This document shows positions 1-10,603 of a stretch of DNA of 10,603 nt, in pieces (the first letter of the stretch is position 1; the number at the start of each line of letters is the position of its first letter). The notes below the pieces were generated by a model that searched no databases, had not been told where the DNA came from, and was given only the letters and a program-made list of their open reading frames with translations. The stretch lies in IMG/VR virus record IMGVR_UViG_2571042056_000002; one strand, given 5' to 3'. The DNA is from a virus. Its lineage: Duplodnaviria > Heunggongvirae > Uroviricota > Caudoviricetes. The position numbers were made by a program, and so were the translations under genes.

Positions 1-32
1 GATCTCGATGGAAGTTATTGAGTGATCTCCTT

Positions 33-830
33 TCATGAAAATACGCAAAAATTCGGGATCCAGAAAATCTCATCGACGTACAGGTCGCCGTTATGGCTCT
101 GTGCGGTGTTGGAGTTGGTGCCGAGAAAAATCAGTTTTGCACCGTTATTGCCCAGGACAATCGGGTCACCGGTCAGGTCAACGTCAACCAGCCGGGCAAA
201 GGCGATGATGTATTCGCGGAACACATACGCCTGCGTTTTACTGGCCGACAGAAAAATCTGGTTATGGCCGGTTTTCAGGGCGCGCAGCAGCGCCTCGCGG
301 GAAAAATAAAACGTCGCGCCAATCTGGCGGGATTTCAGGATATCGCGGATGCGGTGCTCAAGCCCGGCGCGATACCAGTGCAGCTGATATTCGAAAGACT
401 GCTCAAAGAAAATCTGCTCCAGCTTTTCGATGGCCTCGTCACTGAAAAAATTCTTTTTCGGTTTGCGCCGCCCGCCTTTGTTGCGGTTAGCGACGTTCGG
501 ATTAAGGTCTGCCTCGTTGCCGGTCTGACTGTAACGGTTTACCCGTGCCAGTCGTTCAATCTGGCGTCCCAGCAGGTCAATTTCCTTGAAGTCACCGCCG
601 GTTTTCTGCGGTTTGATGATGAGCTGGGTCAGCCGCGCTTCCAGACTCATTTCGACACGGCTGATGGGGGCAACGCTGTCCCAGCCGTCGCGCTGTTTCC
701 AGCTCTGCACCGTCGGGCGTTTCATCTGCAACATGGCGGCAATCTGCGGCACGGAAAACCCCTGCCAGTACAGCAGCGCCGCCTGACGACGCGGGTCGTG
801 TAAAAGAGTGGTGTCTGTGGTGATGGTCAT
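33..830 (-). CDS. P: Terminase ATPase (large) subunit GpP, N-terminal 265 codons only; reading frame closed by TGA at 33-35 (possible truncation or frameshift)
   Basis: Minus-strand ORF 33..860; likely start is the internal ATG at 828-830 (MTITTDTTLLHDPRRQAALLYWQGF...) preceded by GAGG. The N-terminus matches my recollection of P2 gpP. Position is divergent from O as in P2. Full-length P homologues are about 590 aa, so the gene should extend far beyond the left edge, but an in-frame TGA occurs at 33-35 and a second in-frame TAA at 15-17. Confidence 0.8.
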   Translation of the reverse strand: MTITTDTTLLHDPRRQAALLYWQGFSVPQIAAMLQMKRPTVQSWKQRDGWDSVAPISRVEMSLEARLTQLIIKPQKTGGDFKEIDLLGRQIERLARVNRYSQTGNEADLNPNVANRNKGGRRKPKKNFFSDEAIEKLEQIFFEQSFEYQLHWYRAGLEHRIRDILKSRQIGATFYFSREALLRALKTGHNQIFLSASKTQAYVFREYIIAFARLVDVDLTGDPIVLGNNGAKLIFLGTNSNTAQSHNGDLYVDEIFWIPNFCVFS

Positions 831-1003
831 GAATACCTCGCCGTGATGAATACACGGCAAGGCTACTGAGTCGCGCCCCGCGATTCGCTAAGGTGCTGTT
901 GTGTCAGTGATAAGCCATCCGGGACTGATGGCGGAGGATGCGCATCGTCGGGAAACTGATGCCGACATGTGACTCCTCTAATCACTATTCAGGACTCCTG
1001 ACA
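831..1003. promoter_or_regulatory. Divergent P/O intergenic region; expected site of late promoters for the leftward P(Q) and rightward O-operon transcripts
   Basis: 173-bp non-coding gap between divergently oriented P (start 830, minus) and O (start 1004, plus). In P2 this spacer holds activator (Ogr)-dependent late promoters. Only imperfect matches to the TGT-N12-ACA dyad are present: TGT-N12-CCA at 900-917 and TGT-N12-CAC at 968-985. Confidence 0.45.
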
Positions 1004-1858
1004 ATGGCAAAAAAAGTCTCAAAATTCTTTCGTATCGGCGTTGAGGGTGACACCTGTGACGGGCGTGTCATCAGTGCGCAGGATATTCAGGAAATGGCCG
1101 AAACCTTTGACCCGCGTGTCTATGGTTGCCGCATTAACCTGGAACATCTGCGCGGCATCCTGCCTGACGGTATTTTTAAGCGTTATGGCGATGTGGCCGA
1201 ACTGAAGGCCGAAAAGATTGACGATGATTCGGCGCTGAAAGGCAAATGGGCGCTGTTTGCGAAAATCACCCCGACCGATGACCTTATCGCGATGAACAAG
1301 GCCGCGCAGAAGGTCTACACCTCAATGGAAATTCAGCCGAACTTTGCCAACACCGGCAAATGTTATCTGGTGGGACTGGCCGTCACCGATGACCCGGCAA
1401 GCCTCGGTACGGAATACCTGGAATTCTGCCGCACTGCAAAACACAACCCCCTGAACCGCTTCAAATTAAGCCCTGAAAACCTGATTTCAGTGGCAACGCC
1501 CGTTGAGCTGGAATTTGAAGACCTGCCTGAAACCGTGTTCACCGCCCTGACCGAAAAGGTGAAGTCCATTTTTGGCCGCAAACAGGCCAGCGATGACGCC
1601 CGCCTGAATGACGTGCATGAAGCGGTGACCGCTGTTGCTGAACATGTGCAGGAAAAACTGAGCGCCACTGAGCAGCGCCTCGCTGAGATGGAAAACGCCT
1701 TTTCCGCACTTAAGCAGGAGGTGACTGACAGGGCGGATGAAACCAGCCAGGCATTCACCCGCCTGAAAAACAGTCTCGACAGCACCGAAAGTCTGACCCA
1801 GCAGCGCCGCAGCAAGGCCACCGGCGGTGGCGGTGACGCCCTGATGACGAACTGCTGA
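1004..1858 (+). CDS. O: Capsid scaffolding protein GpO
   Basis: ORF 938..1858; start chosen at ATG 1004 (MAKKVSKFFRIGVEGD...) with AGGA upstream, giving 284 aa, the P2 gpO length. Gly-rich C-terminus (ATGGGGDALMTNC). Position is immediately upstream of N. Confidence 0.88.
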   Translation: MAKKVSKFFRIGVEGDTCDGRVISAQDIQEMAETFDPRVYGCRINLEHLRGILPDGIFKRYGDVAELKAEKIDDDSALKGKWALFAKITPTDDLIAMNKAAQKVYTSMEIQPNFANTGKCYLVGLAVTDDPASLGTEYLEFCRTAKHNPLNRFKLSPENLISVATPVELEFEDLPETVFTALTEKVKSIFGRKQASDDARLNDVHEAVTAVAEHVQEKLSATEQRLAEMENAFSALKQEVTDRADETSQAFTRLKNSLDSTESLTQQRRSKATGGGGDALMTNC

Positions 1859-1916
1859 CCGGCGTCAGCCAGTCCGGGAAAACCTTCACGATTAACCCTT
1901 AATTTCAGGAAAAACT

Positions 1917-2990
1917 ATGCGCCAGGAAACCCGCTTTAAATTTAATGCCTACCTGTCCCGTGTTGCCGAACTGAACGGCATCGACGCCGGTGATGTGTCG
2001 AAAAAATTCACCGTTGAACCGTCGGTTACCCAGACCCTGATGAACACCATGCAGGAGTCCTCTGATTTTCTGACCCGCATCAACATTGTGCCGGTCAGCG
2101 AAATGAAAGGGGAAAAAATTGGTATCGGTGTCACCGGCTCCATCGCCAGCACCACCGACACCGCCGGTGGCACCGAGCGTCAGCCGAAGGACTTCTCGAA
2201 GCTGGCGTCTAACAAGTACGAATGCGACCAGATTAACTTCGATTTTTATATCCGCTACAAAACGCTTGACCTGTGGGCGCGTTATCAGGATTTCCAGCTC
2301 CGTATCCGTAACGCCATTATCAAACGCCAGTCCCTTGATTTCATCATGGCCGGTTTTAACGGCGTGAAGCGTGCCGAAACCTCTGACCGCAGCAGCAATC
2401 CGATGTTGCAGGATGTGGCGGTTGGCTGGCTGCAGAAATACCGCAATGAAGCCCCGACGCGCGTGATGAGCAAGGTCACTGACGAGGAAGGTCACACGAC
2501 CTCTGAGGTCATCCGCGTGGGTAAGGGTGGTGATTATGCCAGCCTTGATGCACTGGTGATGGATGCGACCAACAACCTGATTGAACCGTGGTATCAGGAA
2601 GACCCTGACCTTGTGGTGATTGTGGGTCGTCAGCTACTGGCGGACAAGTATTTCCCCATCGTTAACAAGGAGCAGGACAACAGCGAAATGCTGGCCGCTG
2701 ACGTCATCATCAGCCAGAAACGCATCGGTAACCTGCCGGCGGTACGCGTCCCGTACTTCCCGGCGGATGCGATGCTCATCACGAAGCTGGAAAACCTGTC
2801 CATCTACTACATGGATGACAGCCATCGCCGCGTGATTGTGGAAAACCCGAAACTCGACCGCGTGGAGAACTACGAGTCAATGAACATTGATTACGTGGTG
2901 GAAGACTACGCCGCCGGTTGTCTGGTGGAAAAAATCAAGGTTGGTGATTTCTCCACACCGGCTAAGGCGACCGCAGAGCCGGGAGCGTAA
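1917..2990 (+). CDS. N: Major capsid protein GpN
   Basis: 357-aa ORF, the same length as P2 gpN, and the sequence matches my recollection of it (MRQETRFKFNAYLSRVAELNGIDAGD...). AGGAAAAACT precedes the ATG. Canonical position between O and M. Confidence 0.9.
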   Translation: MRQETRFKFNAYLSRVAELNGIDAGDVSKKFTVEPSVTQTLMNTMQESSDFLTRINIVPVSEMKGEKIGIGVTGSIASTTDTAGGTERQPKDFSKLASNKYECDQINFDFYIRYKTLDLWARYQDFQLRIRNAIIKRQSLDFIMAGFNGVKRAETSDRSSNPMLQDVAVGWLQKYRNEAPTRVMSKVTDEEGHTTSEVIRVGKGGDYASLDALVMDATNNLIEPWYQEDPDLVVIVGRQLLADKYFPIVNKEQDNSEMLAADVIISQKRIGNLPAVRVPYFPADAMLITKLENLSIYYMDDSHRRVIVENPKLDRVENYESMNIDYVVEDYAAGCLVEKIKVGDFSTPAKATAEPGA

Positions 2991-2993
2991 CCG

Positions 2994-3737
2994 ATGACGA
3001 GTCCCGCACAGCGCCACATGATGCGGGTCTCGGCAGCGATGACCGCGCAGCGGGAAGCCGCCCCGCTGCGACATGCAACTGTCTATGAGCAGATGCTGGT
3101 TAAGCTCGCCGCAGACCAGCGCACACTGAAAGCGATTTATTCAAAAGAGCTGAAGGCCGCGAAAAAACGCGAACTGCTGCCGTTCTGGTTGCCGTGGGTG
3201 AACGGCGTGCTGGAGCAGGGCAAAGGTGCACAGGATGACATTCTGATGACGGTCATGCTGTGGCGTCTGGATACCGGCGATATTGCCGGTGCGCTGGAGA
3301 TTGCCCGTTATGCCCTGAAGTACGGTCTGACCATGCCGGGTAAACACCGCCGTACCCCGCCGTACATGTTCACCGAGGAGGTAGCGCTTGCGGCCATGCG
3401 CGCTCACGCTGCCGGTGAGTCTGTGGATACCCGCCTGCTGACGGAGACCCTTGAACTGACCGCCACGGCTGACATGCCTGATGAAGTGCGCGCAAAGCTG
3501 CACAAAATTACCGGTCTGTTTCTGCGTGACGGTGGTGATGCCGCCGGTGCGCTGGCTCACCTGCAACGTGCGACACAGCTCGACTGTCAGGCAGGCGTCA
3601 AAAAAGAGATTGAACGACTGGAGCGGGAGCTGAAACCGAAGCCGGAGCCGCAGCCCAAAGCGGCCACCCGAGCCCCGCGTAAGACCCGGAGCGTGACACC
3701 GGCAAAACGTGGACGCCCGAAAAAGAAAGCCAGTTAA
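2994..3737 (+). CDS. M: Terminase endonuclease (small) subunit GpM
   Basis: 247-aa ORF, the P2 gpM length, starting 4 nt after the N stop. Basic Lys/Arg/Pro-rich C-terminus (PKAATRAPRKTRSVTPAKRGRPKKKAS) is typical of a DNA-binding terminase subunit. Confidence 0.85.
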   Translation: MTSPAQRHMMRVSAAMTAQREAAPLRHATVYEQMLVKLAADQRTLKAIYSKELKAAKKRELLPFWLPWVNGVLEQGKGAQDDILMTVMLWRLDTGDIAGALEIARYALKYGLTMPGKHRRTPPYMFTEEVALAAMRAHAAGESVDTRLLTETLELTATADMPDEVRAKLHKITGLFLRDGGDAAGALAHLQRATQLDCQAGVKKEIERLERELKPKPEPQPKAATRAPRKTRSVTPAKRGRPKKKAS

Positions 3738-3836
3738 CAACCGAATGCGCCCCGCGCCAGGGCGGCACGCCGGTCAGTGAGGGTGAATCACCTGACACTG
3801 CACCGGCGTCCACCGCCCGACTTTTCAGAGGTAGTC

Positions 3837-4346
3837 ATGATGACGCTGATTATTCCGCGAAAGGAGGCTCCCGTGTCCGGTGAGGGTACGGTGGTCATCC
3901 CGCAACCGGCAGGCGACGAGCCGGTGATTAAAAACACGTTCTTTTTTCCCGATATCGACCCGAAGCGCGTCCGGGAACGTATGCGCCTTGAGCAGACCGT
4001 CGCCCCCGCCCGTCTGCGTGAGGCCATCAAGTCAGGCATGGCGGAGACGAATGCGGAGCTGTACGAGTACCGCGAACAGAAAATTGCCGCCGGTTTTACG
4101 CGTCTGGCGGACGTCCCGGCGGACGACATCGACGGTGAAAGCATCAAAGTTTTTTACTACGAGCGCGCCGTGTGTGCGATGGCGACCGCGTCGCTTTATG
4201 AACGTTATCGCGGCGTGGATGCCAGTGCCAAAGGCGACAAGAAGGCCGACAGCATTGACAGCACCATTGATGAGCTGTGGCGGGATATGCGCTGGGCAGT
4301 GGCGCGCATCCAGGACAAGCCGCGCTGCATCGTGAGTCAAATCTGA
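3837..4346 (+). CDS. L: Head completion/stabilisation protein GpL
   Basis: ORF 3777..4346; start chosen at ATGATG 3837 (MMTLIIPRKEAPVSGEG...) with GAGG upstream, giving 169 aa, the P2 gpL length. Its TGA stop overlaps the X start (ATGA). Confidence 0.85.
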   Translation: MMTLIIPRKEAPVSGEGTVVIPQPAGDEPVIKNTFFFPDIDPKRVRERMRLEQTVAPARLREAIKSGMAETNAELYEYREQKIAAGFTRLADVPADDIDGESIKVFYYERAVCAMATASLYERYRGVDASAKGDKKADSIDSTIDELWRDMRWAVARIQDKPRCIVSQI

Positions 4347-4549
4347 TGAAGACCTTTGCGCTACAGGGCGACACGCTCGACGCCATTTGTGTCCGGTATT
4401 ACGGGCGCACTGAGGGCGTGGTTGAGACCGTGCTCGCCGCAAATCCGGGACTGGCTGAACTGGGTGCGGTGCTGCCACACGGCACCGCTGTCGAACTGCC
4501 CGACGTTCAGACCGCGCCCGTGGCTGAAACTGTCAATCTGTGGGAGTAA
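4346..4549 (+). CDS. X: Tail protein GpX (LysM-like domain)
   Basis: ORF 4277..4549; start at ATG 4346 gives 67 aa (MKTFALQGDTLDAICVRYYGRTEGVVETVLAANPGL...), the P2 gpX length. Sequence pattern is LysM-like. Start overlaps the L stop. Confidence 0.85.
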   Translation: MKTFALQGDTLDAICVRYYGRTEGVVETVLAANPGLAELGAVLPHGTAVELPDVQTAPVAETVNLWE

Positions 4550-4552
4550 CGC

Positions 4553-4834
4553 ATGACAGCAGAAGAAAAAAGCGTCCTGTCGCTTTTCATGATTGGGGTG
4601 CTGATTGTTGTCGGCAAGGTGCTTGCCGGTGGTGAACCCATCACCCCGCGTCTGTTTATCGGGCGCATGTTGCTCGGTGGTTTTGTCTCGATGGTTGCCG
4701 GTGTTGTTCTGGTGCAGTTTCCTGACCTGTCACTGCCTGCGGTGTGCGGTATCGGCTCCATGCTGGGTATCGCCGGTTATCAGGTGATTGAGATTGCCAT
4801 TCAGCGCCGCTTTAAGGGCAGGGGGAAACAGTAA
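4553..4834 (+). CDS. Y: Holin GpY
   Basis: 93-aa ORF with about three hydrophobic transmembrane segments and a charged C-terminus (QRRFKGRGKQ). First gene of the lysis cassette; its stop overlaps the K start (TAATG). Confidence 0.88.
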   Translation: MTAEEKSVLSLFMIGVLIVVGKVLAGGEPITPRLFIGRMLLGGFVSMVAGVVLVQFPDLSLPAVCGIGSMLGIAGYQVIEIAIQRRFKGRGKQ

Positions 4835-5331
4835 TGCCGGTTATTAACACGCATCAGAATATCGCCGCCTTTCTCGACATGCTGGCCGTGTCCGAAGGGA
4901 CGGCAAACCATCCGCTGACGAAAAACCGGGGCTATGACGTGATAGTCACCGGACTGGACGGGAAGCCGGAAATTTTCACCGATTACAGTGACCACCCGTT
5001 CGCACATGGCCGACCGGCGAAGGTGTTTAACCGTCGCGGTGAAAAATCCACGGCCTCCGGTCGCTATCAGCAGCTTTACCTGTTCTGGCCGCATTACCGC
5101 AAACAGCTTGCCCTGCCGGATTTCAGTCCGTTGTCACAGGACAGACTTGCCATTCAGTTGATCCGCGAACGCGGTGCACTGGATGACATCCGGGCGGGAC
5201 GCATTGAGCGAGCCATTTCACGCTGTCGCAATATCTGGGCGTCCCTGCCGGGTGCCGGTTACGGTCAGCGTGAGCATTCACTGGAAAAACTGGTCACCGT
5301 CTGGCGTACCGCTGGCGGCGTACCGGCTTAA
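4834..5331 (+). CDS. K: Endolysin GpK (lambda R-like lytic transglycosylase / phage lysozyme family)
   Basis: 165-aa ORF. Motifs AFLDMLAVSEGT, YDVIV, FTDYSDHP, SGRYQ and IWASLPGAGYGQREH match what I recall of lambda R endolysin and P2 gpK. Confidence 0.9.
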   Translation: MPVINTHQNIAAFLDMLAVSEGTANHPLTKNRGYDVIVTGLDGKPEIFTDYSDHPFAHGRPAKVFNRRGEKSTASGRYQQLYLFWPHYRKQLALPDFSPLSQDRLAIQLIRERGALDDIRAGRIERAISRCRNIWASLPGAGYGQREHSLEKLVTVWRTAGGVPA

Positions 5332-5345
5332 ACGGAGTAAGCACC

Positions 5346-5771
5346 ATGAAGAAATTATCCCTTTCACTGATGCTGAACGTGTCGCTGGCGCTGATGCTGG
5401 CACTGTCCCTGATTTACCCGCATAGCGTGGCCGTCAATTTTGTCGCCGCCTGGGCGATTCTGGCGACGGTTATCTGTGTGGTTGCCGGTGGTGTCGGCGT
5501 GTATGCCACTGAGTATGTGCTGGAACGCTACGGGCGGGAGCTGCCGCCGGAATCGCTGGCCGTGAAGATTGTCGCGTCGCTGTTTTTGCAGCCGGTGCCG
5601 TGGCGCAGACGGGCGGCGGCTCTGGTGGTGATGGTGGCGGCGTTTATCTCGCTGGTCGCTGCCGGGTGGATTTTTACCGCGCTGATTTACCTCGTGGCGT
5701 CGGTGTTCTTCCGGTTGATACGCACGGCCTGTCGTCAGCGTTTTGAGGGGCGGGAACCATGTCAAAGCTGA
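5346..5771 (+). CDS. lysA: Lysis-timing membrane protein LysA (putative antiholin)
   Basis: 141-aa ORF with about four hydrophobic helices, GGAG upstream of the ATG, same length and position as P2 lysA. Its 3' end overlaps the lysB start by 13 nt. Confidence 0.8.
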   Translation: MKKLSLSLMLNVSLALMLALSLIYPHSVAVNFVAAWAILATVICVVAGGVGVYATEYVLERYGRELPPESLAVKIVASLFLQPVPWRRRAAALVVMVAAFISLVAAGWIFTALIYLVASVFFRLIRTACRQRFEGREPCQS

Positions 5772-6184
5772 TGATTGTGCTGGTTGTGTTGTTATCACTG
5801 GCGGTGGCCGGTCTGTTTCTGGCGAAGCATGAAAACGCCAGCCTGCGCACCTCGCTGGACAGGGCGAACAACGTCGCCAACGGGCAGCAGACGACCATCA
5901 CCATGCTGAAAAATCAGCTTCATGTTGCCCTCACCAGAGCAGACAAAAACGAGCTGGCGCAGGTGGCACTGCGTCAGGAACTGGAGAACGCGGCGAAGCG
6001 TGAAGCACAGCGCGAGAAAACCATCACGAGGTTACTGAATGAAAACGAAGATTTTCGCCGCTGGTACGGCGCTGGCCTGCCTGATGCTGTGCGCCGGTTG
6101 CACCAGCGCCCGGCCTGCACCGACGCCAGTGATTGTCGCCAGCGCCTGCCCGAAAGTGAGCCTTTGCCCGATGCCGGGCAGTGA
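5759..6184 (+). CDS. lysB: Inner-membrane spanin component LysB (Rz-like)
   Basis: 141-aa ORF with an N-terminal transmembrane helix (LMIVLVVLLSLAVAGLFLA) followed by a charged, likely coiled-coil region. Canonical P2 position. Confidence 0.85.
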   Translation: MSKLMIVLVVLLSLAVAGLFLAKHENASLRTSLDRANNVANGQQTTITMLKNQLHVALTRADKNELAQVALRQELENAAKREAQREKTITRLLNENEDFRRWYGAGLPDAVRRLHQRPACTDASDCRQRLPESEPLPDAGQ

Positions 6185-6329
6185 CCCGGAGACGAACGGC
6201 GATTTAAGTGCCGATATCCGACAGCTTGAGAACGCGCTGGCACGCTGTGCCAGCCAGGTAAAAATGATTAAACACTGTCAGGACGAAAACGATGCTCAAA
6301 CCCGACAGCCTGCGCAGGGCGCTGACTGA
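6039..6329 (+). CDS. lysC: Outer-membrane lipoprotein spanin component LysC (Rz1-like), in an alternative frame overlapping lysB and R
   Basis: 96-aa ORF in a different frame from lysB with GAGG upstream of the ATG. Signal peptide and lipobox-like LMLCAGC, then a Pro-rich mature region. Starts inside lysB and ends inside R, as in P2. Confidence 0.8.
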   Translation: MKTKIFAAGTALACLMLCAGCTSARPAPTPVIVASACPKVSLCPMPGSDPETNGDLSADIRQLENALARCASQVKMIKHCQDENDAQTRQPAQGAD

Positions 6330-6759
6330 TGCCGTCACGGTGCTGAAAACCAGTCCCGAGATGCTGCGGATATTCGTTGATAACGGGAGTATTGCCTCCA
6401 CGCTGGCGACGTCGTTGTCATTCGAAAAGCGTTACACGCTCAATGTGATTGTGACCGACTTTACCGGTGATTTTGACCTGCTCATCGTGCCGGTGCTGGC
6501 GTGGCTGCGGGAAAATCAGCCCGACATCATGACCACCGACGCAGGCCAGAAAAAGGGCTTCACGTTTTATGCAGACATCAACAATGACAGCAGCTTTGAT
6601 ATCAGCATCAGCCTGATGCTGACCGAGCGCACGCTGGTCAGTGAGGTGGACGGCGCACTGCATGTTAAGAATATCCCGGAACCCACGCCGCCGGAGCCGG
6701 TCACCCGCCCGATGGAGCTTTATATCAATGGCGAACTGGTGAGCAAGTGGGATGAATGA
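6292..6759 (+). CDS. R: Tail completion protein GpR
   Basis: 155-aa ORF, the P2 gpR length, in canonical position. Overlaps the S start by 8 nt. Confidence 0.85.
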   Translation: MLKPDSLRRALTDAVTVLKTSPEMLRIFVDNGSIASTLATSLSFEKRYTLNVIVTDFTGDFDLLIVPVLAWLRENQPDIMTTDAGQKKGFTFYADINNDSSFDISISLMLTERTLVSEVDGALHVKNIPEPTPPEPVTRPMELYINGELVSKWDE

Positions 6760-7204
6760 GTTTAAGCGTTTTGAAGACCGGCTGACCGGACTGATTGAAT
6801 CGCTGTCACCGTCAGGGCGTCGGCGACTGAGCGCCGAACTGGCGAAACGTCTGCGGCAGAGTCAGCAGCGTCGGGTGATGGCTCAGAAAGCCCCGGACGG
6901 CACACCCTACGCGCCACGCCAGCAGCAGAGCGCCAGAAAAAAGACTGGTCGTGTTAAGCGAAAAATGTTTGCGAAACTTATCACCAGTCGTTTTTTGCAT
7001 ATCCGCGCCAGCCCGGAACAGGCATCAATGGAATTTTACGGCGGGAAGTCACCGAAAATCGCCAGCGTGCATCAGTTCGGTCTGTCGGAAGAAAACCGGA
7101 AAGACGGTAAGAAAATTGATTATCCGGCGCGTCCTCTGCTCGGTTTTACCGGTGAGGATGTGCAGATGATTGAAGAGATTATTCTGGCTCACCTCGACCG
7201 TTAG
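6752..7204 (+). CDS. S: Tail completion protein GpS
   Basis: 150-aa ORF, the P2 gpS length; last gene before the S-V spacer. Confidence 0.85.
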   Translation: MNEFKRFEDRLTGLIESLSPSGRRRLSAELAKRLRQSQQRRVMAQKAPDGTPYAPRQQQSARKKTGRVKRKMFAKLITSRFLHIRASPEQASMEFYGGKSPKIASVHQFGLSEENRKDGKKIDYPARPLLGFTGEDVQMIEEIILAHLDR

Positions 7205-7270
7205 TTGTGCCATTCCCGACACCTCATCGTCACATTGCCGCCGGTATGACCCGGCGGCATCCTTCCCGTT
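7205..7270 (+). promoter_or_regulatory. S-V intergenic spacer; candidate late promoter (PV) region and/or weak terminator
   Basis: 66-bp gap between operons. It contains the near-dyad TGTGCCATTCCCGACACC (TGT-N10-ACA, also readable as TGT-N12-ACC) at 7206-7223 and a GC-rich hairpin at 7236-7259. P2 has a late promoter in front of V. Confidence 0.4.
7236..7259 (+). other. Perfect 9-bp GC-rich stem-loop (TGCCGCCGG - TATGAC - CCGGCGGCA), 12 nt upstream of the V start codon
   Basis: Read directly from the sequence: arms 7236-7244 and 7251-7259 are exact reverse complements with a 6-nt loop. The downstream tract TCCTTCCCGTT is only moderately T-rich, so assignment as an intrinsic terminator is uncertain. 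Confidence 0.35.
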
Positions 7271-7906
7271 ATGAACACTCTCGCAAATATCCAGGAACTC
7301 GCGCGCGCACTGCGCAACATGATTCGCACCGGCCTTGTCGTCGAAACCGACCTTAACGCCGGTCGCTGCCGTGTGCAGACCGGCGGCATGTGCACCGACT
7401 GGCTTCAGTGGCTGACCCATCGTGCCGGTCGTTCGCGCACATGGTGGGCACCTTCCGTGGGGGAACAGGTGCTGATTCTGGCCGTGGGCGGTGAACTTGA
7501 CACGGCGTTTGTTCTGCCGGGGATTTATTCCGGCGATAACCCCGCGCCGTCTGCGTCGGCGGATGCCCTGCATATCCGTTTCCCTGACGGGGCGGTGATT
7601 GAGTATGAACCTGAAACCAGTGCACTGACGGTAAGCGGAATTAAAACAGCCAACGTGACGGCTTCTGATTCTGTTACTGCCGCGGTGCCGGTGGTCATGG
7701 TGAAAGCATCAACCCGCGTCACCCTGGACACACCGGAGGTGGTCTGCACCAACAGGCTGATTACCGGCACGCTGGAAGTGCAGAAGGGCGGGACGATGCG
7801 CGGCAACATTGAACACACCGGCGGTGAACTCTCATCAAACGGTAAGGTACTGCACACCCATAAACACCCCGGCGACAGCGGCGGCACAACCGGGAGTCCT
7901 CTATGA
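7271..7906 (+). CDS. V: Baseplate central spike protein GpV
   Basis: 211-aa ORF, the P2 gpV length. C-terminal His-rich tip (VLHTHKHPGDSGG) resembles the HxH metal-binding apex I recall for P2 gpV. No clear Shine-Dalgarno sequence; ATG directly follows the hairpin. Confidence 0.88.
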   Translation: MNTLANIQELARALRNMIRTGLVVETDLNAGRCRVQTGGMCTDWLQWLTHRAGRSRTWWAPSVGEQVLILAVGGELDTAFVLPGIYSGDNPAPSASADALHIRFPDGAVIEYEPETSALTVSGIKTANVTASDSVTAAVPVVMVKASTRVTLDTPEVVCTNRLITGTLEVQKGGTMRGNIEHTGGELSSNGKVLHTHKHPGDSGGTTGSPL

Positions 7907-8250
7907 CAGCGCGTTATCTCGGAATGAATCGCAGTGATGGCCTGACGGTCACTGACCTCGAGCATATCAGCCAGAGTATCGGCGATATCCTGCGCACACC
8001 AGTCGGCTCACGGGTGATGCGTCGTGATTATGGCTCGTTGCTGGCGTCAATGATTGACCAGCCGCAGACCCCGGCGCTTGAGTTGCAGATTAAGGTCGCC
8101 TGTTACATGGCGGTGCTGAAATGGGAACCCCGCGTCACCCTGTCATCCGTCACCACTGAGCGCAGTTTTGACGGGCGAATGACGGTCACGTTAACCGGCC
8201 AGCACAACGACACCGGCCAGCCACTTTCGTTAACCATCCCTGTGAGTTGA
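7903..8250 (+). CDS. W: Baseplate wedge protein GpW (T4 gp25-like)
   Basis: 115-aa ORF, the P2 gpW length. Start overlaps the V stop (ATGA). Confidence 0.85.
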   Translation: MTARYLGMNRSDGLTVTDLEHISQSIGDILRTPVGSRVMRRDYGSLLASMIDQPQTPALELQIKVACYMAVLKWEPRVTLSSVTTERSFDGRMTVTLTGQHNDTGQPLSLTIPVS

Positions 8251-8254
8251 AACC

Positions 8255-9163
8255 ATGCCGATTATCGACCTGAACCAGCTACCCGCACCGGATGTGGTCG
8301 AGGAGCTGGACTTTGAAACCATTCTTGCCGAACGCAAGGCGACACTGATTTCCCTTTACCCGGAAGACCAGCAGGAGGCAGTCGCCCGTACCCTGACGCT
8401 GGAATCTGAGCCTCTCGTCAAACTGCTGGAGGAAAATGCTTATCGTGAGCTTATCTGGCGTCAGCGTGTGAATGAGGCCGCACGGGCGGTGATGCTGGCC
8501 TGTGCTGCCGGTAATGACCTTGATGTGATTGGTGCCAATTACAACACCACGCGTCTGACTATCACCCCGGCAGATGATTCGACCATCCCGCCGACACCGG
8601 CAGTGATGGAGTCTGACACCGATTATCGTCTGCGTATTCAGCAGGCGTTTGAGGGCTTAAGCGTCGCCGGGTCGGTGGGAGCCTATCAGTATCATGGTCG
8701 CAGTGCTGACGGGCGTGTCGCGGATATCTCTGTCACCAGTCCGTCTCCTGCCTGTGTCACCATCTCTGTGCTGTCACGTGAAAATAACGGCGTCGCATCC
8801 GAAGACCTGCTGTCTGTGGTGCGTAACGCCCTTAATGGCGAGGACGTCAGGCCGGTTGCCGACCGCGTGACCGTGCAGTCTGCCGCCATCGTTGAATACC
8901 AGATAAACGCCACGCTTTACCTTTACCCTGGTCCCGAAAGCGAACCCATCCGCGCGGCCGCCGTGAAAAAACTGGAAGCGTATATCACGGCACAGCACCG
9001 GCTGGGGCGCGACATCCGTCTGTCTGCCATTTATGCCGCTTTGCATGTGGAAGGCGTGCAGCGTGTCGAACTGGCTGCACCGCTGGCCGACATCGTGCTC
9101 AACAATACGCAGGCGTCTTTCTGTACCGAATACAGCGTCGTGACCGGAGGCTCGGATGAGTGA
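8255..9163 (+). CDS. J: Baseplate protein GpJ (T4 gp6-like)
   Basis: 302-aa ORF, the P2 gpJ length, in canonical position after W. Confidence 0.85.
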   Translation: MPIIDLNQLPAPDVVEELDFETILAERKATLISLYPEDQQEAVARTLTLESEPLVKLLEENAYRELIWRQRVNEAARAVMLACAAGNDLDVIGANYNTTRLTITPADDSTIPPTPAVMESDTDYRLRIQQAFEGLSVAGSVGAYQYHGRSADGRVADISVTSPSPACVTISVLSRENNGVASEDLLSVVRNALNGEDVRPVADRVTVQSAAIVEYQINATLYLYPGPESEPIRAAAVKKLEAYITAQHRLGRDIRLSAIYAALHVEGVQRVELAAPLADIVLNNTQASFCTEYSVVTGGSDE

Positions 9164-9767
9164 TTCGCGACTGCTGCCGACCGGCTCATCACCGCTTGAA
9201 GTTGCCGCCGCAAAAGCCTGTGCGGAAATTGAAAAAACGCCGGTCAGTATTCGTGAGCTGTGGAACCCGGATACCTGCCCGGCAAATCTGCTGCCGTGGC
9301 TGGCGTGGTCATTTTCGGTTGACCGCTGGGATGATAAGTGGCCGGAAGCGACAAAACGCGCTGTTATCCGCGATGCGTATTTCATTCACTGCCATAAGGG
9401 CACTATAGGAGCAATCCGGCGTGTGGTGGAGCCGCTCGGCTATCTGATTGAGGTGAGGGAGTGGTGGCAGCTCAACGAGGAACCGGGGACGTTCCGCATC
9501 GTTGTTGGCGTGCTTGAGCAGGGTATTACCGAGGAAATGTATCAGGAGCTGGAGCGTCTCGTTGCTGATGCAAAACCTGCAAGCCGCCATCTGACGGGAC
9601 TGGCTATCAGTTTAAGTACAACCGGCAACATTTTTGCCGGTGCGGGATGCTATCACGGCGACGCCCTGACGGTTTATCCCTACACCCCGGAGGCCATTAT
9701 TGTCGGAGGGGATTATTTCCCGGCCTCGGCCATTCATTTAATTGATAACCTGAGAGTAAACGCATGA
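9156..9767 (+). CDS. I: Baseplate protein GpI
   Basis: 203-aa ORF overlapping the J stop by 8 nt, with an N-terminus typical of gpI (MSDSRLLPTGSSPLEVAAAKACAEIEKTPVSIRELWNPD...). It is longer than the 176 aa I recall for P2 gpI. Confidence 0.8.
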   Translation: MSDSRLLPTGSSPLEVAAAKACAEIEKTPVSIRELWNPDTCPANLLPWLAWSFSVDRWDDKWPEATKRAVIRDAYFIHCHKGTIGAIRRVVEPLGYLIEVREWWQLNEEPGTFRIVVGVLEQGITEEMYQELERLVADAKPASRHLTGLAISLSTTGNIFAGAGCYHGDALTVYPYTPEAIIVGGDYFPASAIHLIDNLRVNA

Positions 9768-10603
9768 CAGTGAAATACTACGCCATTCTGACTAATCAGG
9801 GCGCAGCACGGCTGGCTAACGCGACGATGCTCGGCAGTAAGCTGAATCTGACGCAAATGGCCGTTGGTGATGCGAATGGTGTCTTGCCGACACCAGACCC
9901 GGCACAGACAAAACTGATTAATCAGAAACGCATTGCACCGCTGAATCTTCTGAGTGTTGACCCGAACAACCAGAGCCAGATTATTGCGGAGCAAATCATC
10001 CCTGAGAACGAGGGCGGATTCTGGATCCGTGAGATTGGGCTTTATGATGATGAAGGCGTACTCATTGCGGTGGCGAACTGCCCGGAAACGTACAAACCGC
10101 AGTTACAGGAAGGCAGCGGTCGTACCCAGACTATCCGCATGATTCTGGTTGTCACGAATATCGAAGCCATCACGCTGAAAATCGACCCGTCGGTGGTACT
10201 GGCGACCCGTAAATATGTGGATGATGAAGTCCTGGAATTAAGGCTGTATGTGGATGACCAGATGAGAAACCACATTGCCGCACAGGATCCTCATACCCAG
10301 TATGCACAGAAACATAATCCGACATTTACCGGAGAACCAAAAGCGCCGACGCCTGCCGCAGGAAATAACACCACGCGGATTGCGACCACTGAGTTTGTTC
10401 AGGCCGCTATTACCGCTCTGATTAACGGCGCGCCAGCCACGCTGGACACACTGAAAGAAATTGCCGCAGCCATTAACAATGACCCGAAATTCAGCACCAC
10501 CATTAACAATGCGCTGTCAGGTAAGCAGCCACTGGATGAGACGCTGACTCATTTGAGCGGAAAGGATGTTGCCGGCCTTCTCGCATACCTTGGTTTGGGA
10601 GAA
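9764..10603 (+). CDS. H: Tail fibre protein GpH, 5' partial (280 codons, continues beyond window end)
   Basis: My own translation from ATG 9764, which overlaps the I stop (ATGA), is open to the window end, so it is absent from the supplied complete-ORF track. Product: MTVKYYAILTNQGAARLANATMLGSKLNLTQMAVGDANG...EGGFWIREIGLYDDEGVLIAVANCPETYKP...TRIATTEFVQAAITALINGAPATLDTLKEIAAAINNDPKFSTTINNALSGKQP. It carries the conserved tail-fibre N-terminal and repeat motifs I recall from P2 gpH, but the sequence is clearly different. Confidence 0.8.
   Translation, partial: MTVKYYAILTNQGAARLANATMLGSKLNLTQMAVGDANGVLPTPDPAQTKLINQKRIAPLNLLSVDPNNQSQIIAEQIIPENEGGFWIREIGLYDDEGVLIAVANCPETYKPQLQEGSGRTQTIRMILVVTNIEAITLKIDPSVVLATRKYVDDEVLELRLYVDDQMRNHIAAQDPHTQYAQKHNPTFTGEPKAPTPAAGNNTTRIATTEFVQAAITALINGAPATLDTLKEIAAAINNDPKFSTTINNALSGKQPLDETLTHLSGKDVAGLLAYLGLGE

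Follow-up and report, generated by a model that had tools for sequence, protein, structure and literature searches.

Recombination inside tail gene I probably joined a P2-type prophage backbone to a differing, invertible-type tail-fibre module

How far does a prophage whose late genes follow those of phage P2 also share the P2 tail fibre, and where does the likeness stop? This question is raised by the locus described here, a 10,603-base late-gene block of a P2-type (Peduovirus) prophage of Escherichia coli; this whole stretch is referred to as the window. An earlier note, made from the sequence alone, had proposed that the tail-fibre genes I and H at its right end are swapped relative to P2. 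Our reading, which we hold with a probability of about 0.88, is that this is a P2-type prophage with a differing tail-fibre module, joined to the backbone by recombination in I and carrying an H gene of the invertible type. The features concerned are collected in Table 1.

Table 1. Coordinates of the features discussed (window positions).
Feature	Position	Strand	Basis or remark
ISEc12 (IS21-family) terminus abutting truncated terminase gene P	1-47	.	identical (100%) to ISEc12 ends adjoining istA
Truncated P	left end of window	-	
O, N, M, L, X, Y, K, lysA, lysB, lysC, R, S, V, W, J, I, then H (first 280 codons)		+	in this order
Gene J, baseplate wedge, 302 aa	8255-9163	+	last gene entirely P2-type; backbone reference
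Gene I, 203 aa	9156-9767	+	
P2-type 5' part of I, codons 1-96, within Tail_P2_I domain	9156-9443	+	P2 identity
Non-P2 3' part of I, codons 97-203 plus stop	9444-9767	+	MaxChi breakpoint
gpI C-terminal tether, aa 147-203	9594-9764	+	includes the ~28-aa tail missing from P2 gpI
Constant part of H, 280 codons up to the window end	9764-10603	+	stop-free translation
H N-terminal baseplate-adaptor domain PF12571, aa 1-150	9764-10213	+	Pfam
Conserved H fibre block, ~75 aa (aa 184-257)	10313-10534	+	
Left crossover site, Gin/Hin/Cin/Pin type, TTCTCGCATACC-TT-GGTTTGGGAGAA	10578-10603	+	last 26 bases of window

The backbone follows P2 closely. Alignment with P2 (NC_001895) gave 97.8% nucleotide identity for window positions 48-7206 against P2 2211-9369 and 95.0% for 7271-9592 against P2 10308-12629, both ungapped. 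The statement of the earlier note that the products of O through J have exactly the P2 lengths was borne out by these alignments together with the ORF table and the P2 annotation (O 284, N 357, M 247, L 169, X 67, Y 93, K 165, lysA 141, lysB 141, lysC 96, R 155, S 150, V 211, W 115 and J 302 aa). The ORF coordinates map one to one, the gene order is that of the Peduovirus late-gene cluster and the closest isolates belong to this genus. J differs from its P2 counterpart at 23 of 906 nucleotides, with 19 of the differing codons being synonymous, and gpJ shows 99% amino acid identity to P2 gpJ. The minus-strand ORFs at 8774-9385, 9309-9590, 9734-9994 and 10042-10275 had no Pfam match at E<=0.01 and were treated as antisense noise, a scan of the whole window against Rfam returned zero matches at the gathering score, and a search of the S-V spacer for the P2 pV activator site found neither blastn similarity nor a match to TGT-N12-ACA.

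The likeness to P2 extends into I for 96 codons. The 176 aa that the earlier note gave for P2 gpI are correct (P2 gene I, 12193-12723, according to the P2 annotation) and the window product is longer; the two share 82% identity over 175 aa, being nearly identical over the first 100 residues and divergent beyond, and the window protein carries 28 extra C-terminal residues. The Tail_P2_I domain (PF09684) was found in gpI with E = 3e-56 and 189.6 bits against a cut-off of 20.6, and it covers the complete model (1-139 of 139) at aa 7-143 only, the same extent as in P2 gpI.

In a sliding comparison, which the earlier note had suggested as a means of locating a breakpoint, identity to P2 is ~97% up to ~9270, ~90% over 9275-9420 and ~70% over 9425-9575 and reaches background after ~9650, placing the drop within I. 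Identity to the Gemsvirus phage 500465-2 runs the other way, with ~55% up to 9245, ~70-77% over 9275-9420, 80-87% over 9425-9575 and 90-100% over 9635-10470, a stretch that comprises the 3' part of I and the constant part of H. Using blastn we found 89.7% identity to 500465-2 over 9257-10519 and 76% for 10442-10603 against the second copy of a fibre block in that phage, and zero similarity outside 9257-10603, with nothing upstream of 9257. We applied the maximum chi-square method to informative sites, defined as positions at which the window has the base of either P2 or 500465-2 but not of both. The breakpoint fell in codon 97 of I, between 9443 and 9446 (chi2 = 704, reached by 0 of 1000 permutations). 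To its left (8255-9443) the ratio of P2-like to 500465-2-like sites is 452:14 and to its right it is 29:373. The fall in P2 identity is far beyond chance, as this chi-square value and the permutations demonstrate, and of the two places that the earlier note had considered for a breakpoint, inside I or just after it, the first applies.

One clean break would nevertheless be too simple a description, as the junction appears to be a stepped mosaic. The nucleotide difference from P2 rises from 2.6% through 9.3% to 24.7% (codons 89-146) and 43.7% (codons 147-175), and as the zone 9275-9440 is close to neither parent, either several events took place or one of the parents has not been sampled. Such steps, and the fast evolution of tail-fibre genes, could also be cited for a history with no recombination at all, in which diversifying selection acting on the fibre drove the 3' half of I and H apart from P2 in situ. 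We regard this history as highly improbable. Among codons 39-88 of I, 10 of the 12 differing codons are synonymous, and divergence that is stepwise and at first mostly synonymous points to recombination rather than selection. Moreover, the MaxChi result is extreme, the near-identity of 9635-10470 to a phage of another genus at the nucleotide level effectively refutes divergence in place, and the P2 region 12629-17572 is wholly replaced by different gene content. In the relatives pro483 and CUVET16-819 no homology to P2 returns before the promoter region of the F operon (P2 17572), and therefore the module replaces the 3' part of I, H, G and fun(Z) of P2.

These two relatives are also the closest references for the window as a whole. 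CUVET16-819 from E. coli shows 99.3% identity over 48-10603, and phage pro483 (Peduovirus pro483) shows 98.0% both over 3156-10603 and over 48-10603. Both are collinear with the window, encode the same 203-aa gpI, the same constant part of H and the same crossover site, and like the window are without P2 orf30. They differ from it in having an intact terminase gene, where the window has an ISEc12 end in P, and in extending past the crossover site at which the window stops.

A chimeric contig assembled from two prophages could have produced a similar picture, and the window does resemble a repeat-bounded short-read contig, starting in an IS end and finishing in an inverted-repeat site. Such an artefact is refuted, however, by the recurrence of the same J-I-H junction, which is found at >=99% identity in 56 E. 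coli complete-genome records and likewise occurs in the independently sequenced pro483, vB_EcoM-640R3, S164 and MET_P1_103_31, and the probability of an artefact is close to nil. At least 80% of window positions 9000-10603, the query spanning the junction, is covered in 547 of 5,426 complete E. coli genomes (about 10%), and for gpI with precisely these 203 aa an assembly collection lists 23,277 blocks.

The gene H that follows I begins within the stop of I (ATGA at 9764-9767), whereas a 10-nt gap separates the two genes in P2. The adaptor domain PF12571 was found with E = 2e-62 over the complete model (1-150 of 150) directly downstream of I, placing the product among the gpH-type fibres, so that P2 and the window share both protein families, Tail_P2_I and PF12571, in addition to the order and lengths of O to J and the first 96 codons of I. 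As the earlier note had supposed, the H N-terminus is unlike that of P2 gpH, with 42% identity by BLASTP and 45% by MAFFT compared with 99% for gpJ. Two findings would have spoken against a swap, a P2 gpI of 203 aa and an H N-terminus as P2-like as the backbone, and neither was seen. The motif GGFW-RE-GLYDD-G-LIAVAN, said to be kept in H, was indeed seen there as GGFWIREIGLYDDEGVLIAVAN and aligns with GGFWMRELGLYDDAGTLIAVAN of P2. The tail-fibre repeat motifs, said to be kept as well, were not recovered: P2 gpH has PF03406 and window H has no match to it at E<=0.001.

Window H is 100% identical to H of vB_EcoM-640R3, 97% to H of 500465-2 and 75% to Cartapus H, and the P2-type N-termini are the outliers with 42-48%. 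With its conserved fibre block the P1 fibre shares 73-74% identity and lambda Stf about 54%. According to a protein alignment this block is present in two tandem copies in H of 500465-2 and Cartapus and in one copy in the window. A second module boundary at ~10500-10519, where the matches to S164, to the O157:H43 'P2' and to 500465-2 end, was considered and rejected as a reflection of this difference in copy number.

The long form of gpI is widespread. Its tail ...YTPEAIIVGGDYFPASAIHLIDNLRVNA aligns across the gpI of Gemsvirus, Eganvirus (186-like) and Elveevirus, and P2 gpI ends at ...TVYPG where the long forms continue. We found it in 149 phage records, from phages of Ralstonia, Klebsiella, Yersinia, Salmonella, Erwinia, Pseudomonas and Aeromonas, and in the records examined it is always paired with a non-P2-type H N-terminus, a pairing that spans genera. 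Since the long tail occurs in so many records across many hosts, the 203-aa protein is the usual Peduoviridae form and the short 176-aa gpI of P2 the exception.

This distribution allows the direction of the exchange to be turned around: the module of the window could be ancestral and typical of the family, and P2 together with most Peduovirus isolates could have acquired a module with short gpI, H, G and Z/fun. The statement that the module is swapped relative to P2 would stay true and the novelty would lie on the P2 side. The many hosts of the long gpI tail, its alignment across three genera beyond the P2 terminus and the outlying position of the P2-type H N-termini all speak for this direction, and we consider it possible, if rather unlikely. 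Most members of the genus are of the P2 type, however, with 71 phage records covering at least 80% of the window and 9 (6 distinct phages) covering at least 80% of 9156-10603. In addition, the stretch 9635-10470 is 90-100% identical to 500465-2, the other late genes of which are only ~55% identical, and near-identity amid such neighbours argues for a recent transfer involving the pro483 lineage and not only for ancient retention.

What kind of fibre gene is joined to the backbone can be read from the last bases of the window. The crossover-site consensus matched once in the window, against 0 matches expected, with the full 26-bp site TTCTCGCATACCTTGGTTTGGGAGAA. It lies in frame in H and encodes ..LLAYLGLGE; its 12-2-12 layout and its frame are those of Mu gixL (TTATCCAAAACC-TC-GGTTTACAGGAA, encoding ..FIQNLGLQE), with which it agrees at 17 of 26 positions. 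Such an in-frame site at the window end suggests an invertible fibre gene with the 280 codons of H as its constant part; Mu S likewise has its 26-bp 12-2-12 site in frame at the end of the constant part, encoding ..LGLxE. The window thus resembles the invertible tail-fibre host-range switches represented by the Mu G segment with Gin, the P1 C segment with Cin and the e14 P segment with Pin, while its backbone is P2-type and not that of Mu or P1, and its H belongs to the P2 family with PF12571 and shows 22% identity to the N-terminus of Mu S. P2 itself differs in having a fixed H-G pair with fun(Z) and no invertase.

The window stops at the left site, and the right site, the invertase and both orientations were seen in its relatives only. 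There I (203 aa) and H are followed by a chaperone, by a second chaperone and a second fibre C-terminus in inverted orientation, by the invertase and by FI, so that, as in Mu, P1 and e14, two opposed fibre C-termini, each with a chaperone, are followed by a serine invertase. The inverted partner TTCTCCCAAACC-AA-CGTTTATGAAAA, the AA core of which is TT on the other strand, is found about 1.9 kb downstream of the left site and just upstream of the invertase gene (loci L002, L003, L005 and L007). The invertase itself has 197 aa, contains PF00239 (Resolvase) and PF02796 (HTH_7) and matches Mu Gin (PDB 3uj3) with E = 8e-94. Of 10 further loci encoding the identical gpI, in which H has 392 to 602 aa, 9 have both sites and the invertase; in the tenth, L016, the left site is degenerate and the right site and the invertase are missing. 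Locus L013 carries the segment in the orientation opposite to that in L014 or L009, with collinear flanks and the interior on the opposite strand, and collinearity stops and restarts at the crossover sites. The left crossover site of 500465-2 is identical to that of the window, and this phage also has an invertible cassette and an invertase. Inversion in P2-like prophages of EPEC has been demonstrated experimentally (PMC4272514). We infer that the source genome of the window carries the cassette and the invertase downstream of the last base sequenced here.

The claim of the earlier note that the receptor-binding module was swapped therefore needs to be divided. There is an exchange of modules relative to P2, but the swapped part within the window consists of the gpI tether and the adaptor and shaft of H and not of the tips. 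The tips that bind the receptor would follow past the right end of the window, in an invertible cassette as seen in the near-identical relatives.

Why the exchange should have its border inside I might be understood from the baseplate of P2. According to a cryo-EM preprint each baseplate wedge contains one gpI and two gpJ, and gpI, with its C-terminal part starting at R153, holds the gpH trimer by the N-terminal adaptor through a rope-like interface, a contact that is based on low-resolution density and AlphaFold models and on the short gpI of P2 rather than the long form (10.64898/2026.09.14.750843). We propose that homologous recombination within I, with its main switch at 9443-9446, joined a left piece consisting of P2-type baseplate genes through the first half of I to a right piece of the long-gpI type, consisting of the second half of I and H and nearly identical to the module of Gemsvirus 500465-2. 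The N-terminal domain of gpI would pack with gpJ in the wedge and its C-terminal tether would bind the N-terminal adaptor of the H trimer, and a crossover within I would keep both interfaces, gpI-gpJ and gpI-H, matched. As the swapped DNA encodes both tether and adaptor, the contacting parts would travel together while the half of gpI embedded in the wedge would stay with gpJ, and the contact between gpI and gpH would explain the co-transfer. The 280 codons of H, ending in the 26-bp crossover site, would then serve as the constant part. As in the near-identical prophages, in which a Gin-like serine invertase flips a segment of about 1.9 kb at this site, every flip would join one or the other of two receptor-binding C-termini, together with its own chaperone, to this constant part and so switch the host range.

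Both ends of the window look like break points of a short-read assembly. On the left, all P2-type matches start at window position 48, equal to P2 2211 and lying within gene P, and the ISEc12 end, which is outside the fibre module, marks the left end; the junction of positions 47 and 48 was spanned by no match in the complete E. coli genomes. On the right, the window ends exactly at the last base that both segment orientations have in common, and the base that follows is already different between the two continuations possible in CUVET16-819. Break points at both ends would imply that both orientations were present in the sequenced culture. The segment might then be still flipping even though the terminase cut by ISEc12 bars DNA packaging, and the locus would be a P2-derived, tailocin-like weapon with switchable targets, kept by the host in the manner of carotovoricin Er, and not a decaying prophage. 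We consider this speculative reading improbable.

In summary we could place the border between the P2-type backbone and its tail-fibre module inside I. The arrangement is already known and common, being found in pro483, in ~10% of the complete E. coli genomes and in the literature: exchange of tail fibres and the presence of DNA invertases at this place in P2, the Z/fun hotspot, have been described previously (PMC4272514; bioRxiv 10.1101/2024.10.15.618418). The value of the analysis lies mainly in annotation, as it provides reference points for a common allele, namely the switch at codon 97 of I, the H constant part of 280 codons and the crossover site given above. For the engineering of P2-type particles or tailocins it would suggest moving the C-terminal tether of gpI and the N-terminal fibre adaptor as one unit.

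At its left end the window begins within the IS21-family element ISEc12, which adjoins the large terminase gene P and is found in multiple copies on E. coli chromosomes and plasmids. Gene P is truncated at this junction, and DNA packaging by the prophage is therefore probably abolished. Around the lysA/lysB junction (5650-5850) the identity to P2 falls locally to 89-92%, and this stretch may be another small mosaic patch; elsewhere in the head and lysis genes the identity is 97-100%.

Between genes S and V, P2 9370-10307, carrying orf30 and the region of the pV activator, is missing from the window and an unrelated spacer containing the hairpin GCCGCCGG-N6-CCGGCGGC is found. At the same position L011, another prophage encoding a gpI identical to that of the window, carries a 246-aa gene (7298-8038), and the S/V junction is therefore a second cargo site.

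The constant part of the tail-fibre gene H differs in copy number, as the Gemsvirus phage 500465-2 and Cartapus possess the conserved fibre block twice in tandem (NPTFTG...NDPKFSTTIN and SPALTG...NDPNFSTTVLN) but the window only once. This difference is consistent with unequal recombination between the repeats.

Features of the window and of related loci
Feature	Sequence	Coordinates	Remark
ISEc12 terminus	window	1-47	adjoins gene P at the equivalent of P2 2211
S/V spacer	window	7205-7270	64-66 bp
Conserved fibre block	window	10313-10534	one copy
Two-copy fibre-block region	L005 (relative)	6050-6569
Two-copy fibre-block region	L007 (relative)	5550-6062
Region with fixed H	L016 (prophage, identical gpI)	10609-12734	507 aa; left crossover site degenerate, no invertase
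Region with ISEc12 insertion	L012 (prophage, identical gpI)	10612-14382	directly after gene I, at the start of H

The final base of the window, 10603, is also the final base of the crossover site and the last one common to both orientations of the invertible segment. This exact stop suggests that the contig broke there because the sequenced population contained the segment in either orientation. In some hosts the fibre module itself is decaying or becoming fixed, as in L016 with its fixed H and in L012 with its insertion.
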